Of a DNA stretch of 64,000 nt, positions 45,007-46,062 are shown piece by piece. The stretch is taken from NCBI RefSeq assembly GCF_055900595.2, contig NZ_CM148325.1; one strand, 5' to 3'. Each line of letters starts with the position of its first letter. Position 1 is the stretch's first letter. The translations under genes and the position numbers were made by a program. The notes under the pieces were generated by a model that saw only the letters and a list, made by a program, of their open reading frames with translations, was not told the DNA's origin and ran no database searches.

Positions 45007-46007
45007 GTATTGCCATTTCCTTAACCCCACCTGATAACCCTTAGCCCAATGGTGAGTGCGGAACTGTCAAACCCGCTCACCGGGCTGAGTTTCGATGTAG
45101 CAAGAATTATCTCCCTCCAGACCACCACGGAATATTCGGTAACACTGAAGGAACCTGTTTTTCACCATGTAGCCTTCGTTAATCGACACCTTTCTAAGAC
45201 TGTAAAGATGCTTAAGTGTTTTGACACATTATGATTATTAATAGTTGTAATAAATCATTGAGTAACAATTGATAGGTCAAAACATATAGGATAATTCTTA
45301 TGTGATCTGTATTTTGTGTAGTCTGGAAATTAGTAAAATTCCTGGAGATAATCAGAAAGGGAATTTCAAATAAGCATAATAATTTCCAGGGAAACTATTC
45401 GTCGATTTTAAGAAATGTCTGCTCAGGTATATCTACTGAGGGATAATGCTGGCTGTAACGCTGGTTAAAATAAATGCACAAAATAATCAAGATGTATATT
45501 TTAATTGACGAAAATAATTACTCACGGAATTATTAATAGGTGTTAAATAATACCGTTTAAATGTGATGTAAATCACAAATGTGACTGTAAAGAGGGGGCT
45601 GTAGATATAAATAAGAAGTACATGAGTGAATTTTAAATAGGGAAATAGTTTCTTGCTAAACAATTTATTGGTAATCAATCGCATGCGTCCTGGTTTGAAA
45701 CAGATTGCAGGTATTGTTACGCATAAAATCCATAGGGGGTATTATAATCAAGTAGTTAACAGTAATAGTGAAAAATAATTTCCTGAGAAATTAACTCTGC
45801 ATTCTAAAACGGCCAGTTTTCTGAAATTACCAGAAGACCGAATACATTCATGCCTGAAGAATGGATTAGAAGAAACGAGACGGAAATAGATCTATTTATC
45901 TCTGCGGAAATAATTTCTGCTGAAATTTTTTGCGGCTATTAAAAAGGTCAAACCGTCTGAGTAAATTTTATCCAGTTACAAATAAGCATTACCTCCAGTG
46001 TATTGGT

Positions 46008-46045
46008 AGCTGTTAAGCCAAGGGCGGTAGCGTACCTGAAGAGAT
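46008..46045 (+). promoter_or_regulatory. JUMPStart element containing ops (RfaH-dependent antitermination site)
   Basis: Sequence ggtagctgttaagccaagggcggtagcgta matches the JUMPStart consensus, including the ops core GGCGGTAGCGT at 46034-46044, ~20 bp upstream of the kpsM start. Confidence 0.75.
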
Positions 46046-46062
46046 TAGGATCACATCATCAA

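Follow-up and report, generated by a model that had tools for sequence, protein, structure and literature searches.

The gap between yghD and kpsM

The window, the whole 64,000-nucleotide stretch analysed in this study, is part of an E. coli chromosome. Searching with the intergenic gap described below returned a 100% identical copy in NZ_CP030768.1 (E. coli strain 2017C-4173W12), from which the gene annotation was read, and a related leader in 1699 of 5426 complete E. coli genomes. The gsp type II secretion operon lies upstream in the order gspC to gspL, followed by the GspM-family gene yghD (T2SS-beta), which ends at 45006; the ATG of kpsM stands at 46063, leaving a gap of 1056 bp at 45007-46062. 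On the ORF map and the RefSeq annotation of NZ_CP030768.1, this entire + strand region very probably comprises the PR3 (region 3) control sequences and the 5' leader of the capsule operon.

The GC content of the gap is 0.353, as against 0.558 in the gsp operon and 0.434 in kpsM. Base composition inside the gap is uneven, with values of 0.48 at 45007-45195, 0.314 at 45196-45995 and 0.46 at 45996-46062. Across the first 44 kb, no 800-bp segment of the window was as AT-rich as the gap core, and the capsule biosynthesis genes downstream were even poorer in GC (0.30). Eighteen A/T-only runs of at least eight bases were found, the longest of 12 bases, and they clustered at 45465-45552. The sequence-only reading had described an AT-rich junction with long A/T tracts between gspM and kpsM; its coordinates proved exact and its description of the composition was borne out. 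The first ~190 bp, which are not AT-rich, had been left out of that account.

The gap is absent from K-12, whose homology with the window ends exactly at the yghD stop codon, and the entire gap is therefore part of the capsule-associated segment. A hidden gene was considered and rejected: the gap holds ORFs of 61, 65 and 41 aa, their frames are lost in alleles of 78-82% identity, and there is thus no sign of one.

Two hairpins were detected in the gap. The first, a strong stem-loop at 45040-45089 on the + strand, starts 34 nt past the yghD stop; its folding energy is -27.3 kcal/mol (z = -4.5), a stability that none of 200 shuffles reached. The inner part of the stem, GGTGAGTG/C(G/A)CTCACC, recurs with a different loop in a spacer variant of only 49% identity (C8, E69 and E. 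whittamii). The gsp (T2SS-beta) operon probably ends or terminates at this hairpin, which would then shield PR3 from gsp read-through. The second is a weak terminator-like hairpin followed by a T run at 45902-45935 on the + strand, ~90 nt before JUMPStart (terminator scan 45904-45920 plus tail; -10 kcal/mol, z = -3.1). The T run is broken in most other alleles, and the hairpin may contribute to the damping of transcription reported for the leader.

Pairwise and multiple alignments revealed that the gap exists in two lengths. At 45773-45793 (+ strand) the window carries a single copy of the repeat AAATAATTTCCTGAGAAATTA; at this site, long-form leaders hold ~116 extra bp flanked by two copies of the 21-bp direct repeat, which stretches the leader to ~857 nt. 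The short form is shared by the window, K5 and EAEC 042, and the long form by CFT073 (1173 bp; L002 29294-30466), Esc11, C8, E69 and E1V33. A further arrangement was observed in the group 3 locus of EC31 (L005 6001-6720), which keeps the first ~429 bp of the gap, PR3 included. There, an internal deletion joins the PR3 stretch to JUMPStart/ops and a truncated remnant of group 2 kpsM, and the fusion sits upstream of the group 3 kpsD-M-T-E genes.

JUMPStart, ops and the capsule operon

The 3' part of the gap contains a full-length match to the Rfam family RF01707 (JUMPstart) at 45996-46034 on the + strand, comprising a stem-loop (TGGTAGCTGTTAAGCCA) and then ops. At 58.5 bits the match clears the gathering score of 35; its E-value is 1e-11 computed over the region and 7e-11 over the whole window. 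It was the sole JUMPstart match in the window, and a permissive Rfam scan of 44000-53000 detected no other RNA family. The string ggtagctgttaagccaagggcggtagcgta, from which the sequence-only reading had recognised a JUMPStart with ops immediately before kpsM, sits at 46005-46034, so that claim stands. The ops element GGCGGTAGCGTA, read directly from the sequence at 46023-46034 (+ strand), is the predicted RfaH loading and pause site, acting through the non-template strand. The interval from its end to the kpsM ATG is 28 nt, as published (PMC8960920). The ops core 8-mer GGCGGTAG alone gave two matches against 1.25 expected per window, which is not significant, and the evidence for JUMPStart is thus the complete 39-nt element. 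The second copy of GGCGGTAG, at 60221-60228 on the + strand, is antisense within the - strand gene kpsS and outside any leader, and was taken as a chance occurrence.

Positions 1-8 and T11 of ops match the consensus, and G4, G5, T6, A7, G8 and T11, the bases essential for RfaH (PMC5995543), are all intact. Position 12 is A and not G, so that the pause-inducing TG at positions 11-12 is not present. Validated K-12 ops targets have a pause-promoting G at this position, and in vitro the substitution G12C abolished the U11 pause and kept RfaH recruitment (PMC5995543). As A12 is present in the window and in all seven aligned kps leaders that cover ops, CFT073 among them, it is, on this alignment, a deviation of the kps family as a whole and no defect of the copy in the window. 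The segment 45985-46065, covering JUMPStart, ops and the kpsM start, is 100% identical to the K5 locus and to EAEC 042, and JUMPStart itself retains 95-100% identity to the diverged leaders. It lies ~700 nt downstream of the homology-mapped transcription start, and no conserved ORF runs across it.

Orthologous leaders have been shown to work through RfaH. In CFT073, ChIP-seq showed that RfaH loads at the ops of the kps leader and that its signal persists along the unit; the CFT073 variant GGCGGTAGCATA, which also ends in TA, recruits RfaH. Travelling ratios of the polymerase were determined as well, and 5.4 kb downstream an rfaH deletion left 0.1-0.34 of the wild-type occupancy (PMC9765446). 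The RfaH dependence of the K5 leader comes from genetics (PMC8960920). JUMPStart might, on the other hand, act mainly at the RNA level, its hairpin or the pairing of a small RNA such as RyhB around ops controlling kpsM translation. The Rfam entry for JUMPstart indeed describes a cis-regulatory RNA whose stem-loop is conserved, and RyhB activated a kpsM leader fusion in a reporter study that predicted pairing at ops (PMC11988350). Yet shuffled versions of the 81-nt segment were just as stable (z = +0.56), and RfaH was seen to load directly at the CFT073 kps ops (PMC9765446), so that we consider a mainly RNA-level role improbable. The two modes of control are not mutually exclusive.

The capsule operon downstream of the RfaH loading site consists, in the annotation of the identical genome, of eight + strand genes at 46063-57968. 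The first gene, kpsM (46063-46839, + strand), codes for an ABC transporter permease; it is followed by a glycosyltransferase-like gene, a 1248-aa gene of the CDP-glycerol glycerophosphotransferase family, kpsT (51863-52549), an acyltransferase gene, a GT2 gene and two ORFs, the last of which codes for 525 aa and ends at 57968. No terminator-like sites were found on the + strand in 46000-59600, and we infer that 46063-57968 forms one transcription unit. The genes kpsS, kpsC, kpsU and kpsD lie on the - strand at 59541-64000 and converge on the + strand capsule genes. Between the last of these and the convergent kpsS, a frameshifted pseudogene of an IS3-family transposase was observed at 58186-59295, and an Rfam match to the sRNA isrN (58888-59030, 123.7 bits) falls inside it. 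Elsewhere in the window, Rfam matches were recorded for the sRNA C0719 at 26061-26282 on the - strand (294.5 bits), between glcB and glcA, and for two copies of the REP-derived naRNA4 within 642-817, near the window start.

The canonical arrangement in group 2 loci has kpsT directly behind kpsM and overlapping its 3' end. In the window, two genes of 330 and 1248 aa with a GC content of ~0.27 (range 25-30%) stand between them, homology to canonical loci ends 3 nt past the kpsM stop, and kpsT lies 5.8 kb beyond ops. The separation of kpsT from kpsM had gone unmentioned in the sequence-only reading. The two proteins also differ in their conservation: KpsM has 97-98% identity with the CFT073 and K5 proteins, but KpsT reaches only 73-74% with its canonical counterparts, and those of CFT073 and K5 share 88%. 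The exact locus was found in 39 of the 5426 complete genomes, and a glycosyltransferase gene directly follows kpsM in 94. In the locus of TUM1586 (L009), kpsT is the last gene of the operon, before kpsS. Recent surveys have described atypical architectures, with region 2 placed outside regions 1 and 3 or with kpsMT inverted and PR3 and ops missing; the KL112-type and other such rearrangements were considered and set aside as different, since kpsMT is inverted there and PR3 and ops are lost. A full-text search of the literature consulted returned no published split of kpsM and kpsT, a result that is not proof of the arrangement being undescribed.

The 165-bp gap before kpsT contains a hairpin at 51742-51791 (10-bp stem, large loop) and a perfect TATAAT at 51809-51814, ~50 nt upstream of kpsT. 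The two may represent a terminator and a promoter within the operon, or chance occurrences in AT-rich DNA, and on their account the operon may not be a single unit.

The homology-mapped PR3, its flanking AT-rich blocks and a predicted CRP site

The promoter of region 3 was located by homology to K5, for which the primary work (Stevens et al., 1997; Xue et al., 2009) is cited here through a 2022 review (PMC8960920). As summarised in that review, transcription from K5 PR3 starts 741 bp upstream of kpsM, and the promoter has a -10 element and no -35. Our K5 reference was the locus with kfiA, kfiC and kfiD of the ST131 strain 4224 (L007), whose gap is 1057 bp long. K5 position -741 aligns to window position 45323, 7-8 nt past the hexamer TATTTT at 45310-45315 (+ strand), which is the putative -10 element of PR3 (P1) and has no accompanying -35 match. 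The start of the region 3/2 capsule operon is accordingly placed by homology, within 1-2 nt, at 45322-45324 on the + strand, giving a leader of ~740 nt, and it agrees with the -13/+245 numbering of EAEC 042 (PMC12360894). A start near 45439, which would follow if the K5 leader were of the long form, was rejected because the K5 locus has the short form. The sequence-only reading had not given the promoter's distance: by homology it lies ~740 bp upstream of kpsM and not beside JUMPStart.

The 17-mer TGATCTGTATTTTGTGT, which holds TATTTT, was invariant in nine leaders, among them two E. coli alleles of 78-82% overall identity and the leaders of two other Escherichia species (E. whittamii and Escherichia sp. 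E1V33). The exact 22-base promoter pattern occurred in 3 of ~100,000 species-representative genomes, all of them Escherichia. A consensus promoter scan of the gap gave four matches against 4.3 expected and none at PR3, which is without a -35. In EAEC 042, a point mutation in the P1 -10 together with a mutation of the second promoter, P2, abolished activity (PMC12360894). A GATC (Dam) site was also observed at 45304-45307, directly upstream of the PR3 -10 and within the 17-mer.

For K5, the review, citing Xue et al. (2009), gives an H-NS/SlyA footprint from -135 to -21 and an H-NS footprint from +141 to +219, the latter being needed for silencing at 20 °C (PMC8960920). Transferred by homology, these correspond to a putative upstream H-NS/SlyA region at 45188-45302 (GC 0.26, 99% identical to K5) and a putative downstream H-NS region at 45463-45541 (GC 0.23). 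So placed, the footprints fall on the two lowest-GC segments of the gap, and the second of these contains the longest A/T runs. The downstream block is also the most variable segment among alleles (86-91% identity; 86% to K5), and for this reason the strength of thermoregulation in the allele of the window could differ from that of K5. Only two sites resembling the high-affinity H-NS motif TCGATAAATT were found, each with two mismatches.

A predicted CRP site, TGTGATGTAAATCACA, lies at 45562-45577, at ~+240 in the leader, and had been omitted from the sequence-only reading. It has a perfect TGTGA-N6-TCACA core, a pattern with one match in 64 kb against 0.03 expected. Its centre is at -493.5 from kpsM and it aligns with the site of EAEC 042, centred at -492.5, which was bound by CRP in both ChIP-seq and bandshift experiments; in that strain CRP lowers kpsM promoter activity (PMC12360894, published 2025). 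The half-sites were invariant in all nine leaders, and the six-base spacer took five forms: TATAAA in K5 and EAEC 042, TGTAAA in the window, CFT073 and E1V33, and TCTTAA, TGAATA and TTGAAA in the remaining alleles.

In EAEC 042 the spacer of the CRP site is at the same time the -10 (TATAAA) of P2, a promoter weaker than P1 (PMC12360894). The corresponding position in the window, by alignment with EAEC 042, is 45567-45572 (+ strand) and reads TGTAAA, not TATAAA. The A at position 2 of the -10 hexamer is the base that sigma-70 needs most; TGTAAA is without it, and we therefore expect P2 to be weak or missing in this allele. The -13/+245 spacing of EAEC 042 (257 nt) fits hexamer position 1 or 2 equally; the window has G at 45568, and the engineered P2 mutation is designated '245G'. 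P2 thus appears, from the aligned leaders, to be specific to some alleles. With TATAAA in only two of nine leaders but CRP half-sites that do not vary, the comparison suggests a conserved role for CRP in acting on P1 transcription and not in repressing P2.

These observations also bear on the possibility that the main control comes from a CRP-repressed P2 inside the leader and not from PR3/P1. EAEC 042 does have a demonstrated P2, whose -10 lies within the CRP site (PMC12360894), and that site is perfectly conserved in the window. Nevertheless, the hexamer of the window departs from TATAAA at position 2, few leaders keep it, and even in EAEC 042 P2 is the lesser of the two promoters, so that such control is very improbable.

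Interpretation and comparison with known systems

We read the gap as part of an E. coli group 2 capsule (kps) locus, where it serves as the regulatory region of PR3 and as a long 5' leader, and put the probability of this reading at roughly 0.9. The elements were found at the positions given above, and they are orthologous to those of characterised loci. The sequence-only reading had predicted RfaH-dependent antitermination through the capsule transcript and probable H-NS and thermoregulated promoter control; this interpretation gains support by homology, the predicted elements being present and orthologous to elements tested in other strains. That the gap is instead a passive island junction with JUMPStart as a relic, kpsM being driven by a nearby promoter or by gsp read-through, is the least probable alternative. 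In its favour, K-12 homology ends at the yghD stop as at an island boundary, gsp and kps are co-directional, and promoter-like hexamers in the gap are no commoner than in shuffled sequence. Against it, the promoter 17-mer, CRP half-sites and JUMPStart are (nearly) invariant in alleles of 78-82% identity and in other Escherichia species, orthologous elements are active in experiments (PMC8960920, PMC9765446, PMC12360894), a strong hairpin follows yghD, and transposon insertions in the yghD-kpsM gap abolished the K1 capsule (PMC5654933).

By analogy with K5, K1, K2 and EAEC 042, the PR3 region and leader most probably work as follows. First, sigma-70 transcription would begin from the -10-only promoter TATTTT at 45310-45315, with a start near 45323, ~740 nt before kpsM. 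Lying between two AT-rich H-NS blocks, PR3 would be silenced at low temperature and tuned together with SlyA at 37 °C, and the CRP site at ~+240 would damp transcription at high cAMP. Second, RNA polymerase would traverse the leader and pause at ops (46023-46034) within JUMPStart, where the exposed non-template strand would recruit RfaH, which would remain on the polymerase. Third, RfaH would exclude NusG, suppress pausing and Rho termination and counteract H-NS filaments, and its action would carry transcription through ~12 kb of AT-rich capsule genes coated with H-NS. Such an element governs the expression of a major virulence factor in extraintestinal E. coli and would couple temperature, nutrient state and RfaH antitermination. 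It is already known, and the interpretation restates published biology; because this regulation is established, finding it again adds only annotation.

Two observations nevertheless appear worth passing on, namely the separation of kpsM from kpsT, and the finding that the published P2 is not conserved among alleles and its CRP site is. In canonical loci, strong RfaH dependence is seen only for polymer synthesis (region 2). We tentatively propose, as a combined reading that we hold to be possible but rather doubtful, that the shift of kpsT makes assembly of the KpsMT exporter depend on RfaH processivity, unless the TATAAT at 51809-51814 is an internal promoter, and that P2 is allele-specific with the conserved role of CRP exerted on P1. 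If true, the exporter ATPase kpsT would come under the long-range part of RfaH control in a minority locus type.

Among characterised systems, the leader of the window is 95.8-96.1% identical to those of K5, EAEC 042 and CFT073. It shares with K5 PR3 and its 741-nt leader (95.8%) the position between yghD and kpsM, the short form (1057 bp in K5, 1056 bp here), the core -10 hexamer, an identical JUMPStart-ops-ATG segment and the 28-nt distance of ops. The two differ at 45 positions, concentrated in the downstream H-NS block (86%), and the window leader is 1 nt shorter; K5 has TATAAA as CRP spacer where the window has TGTAAA, and in the window kpsT is not adjacent to kpsM. The EAEC 042 leader (96.1%) has its CRP site within 1 bp of the corresponding position (-492.5 versus -493.5) and a P1 region identical except for a few bases, but the TATAAA in its CRP site provides an active P2, in contrast to the TGTAAA of the window. 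The leader of CFT073 (K2) is orthologous, with 95.8% identity over aligned bases, the TGTAAA allele and ops on the non-template strand; it differs in being of the long form (116 extra bp), in its ops variant and in its adjacent kpsMT. More distantly, the waa (rfa), O-antigen (rfb), hly and tra leaders likewise combine a 39-nt JUMPStart bearing ops on the non-template strand with a long operon leader (PMC5995543), whereas kps ops has A12 in place of the G of validated K-12 targets, and the kps leader, at ~700 nt, is unusually long.
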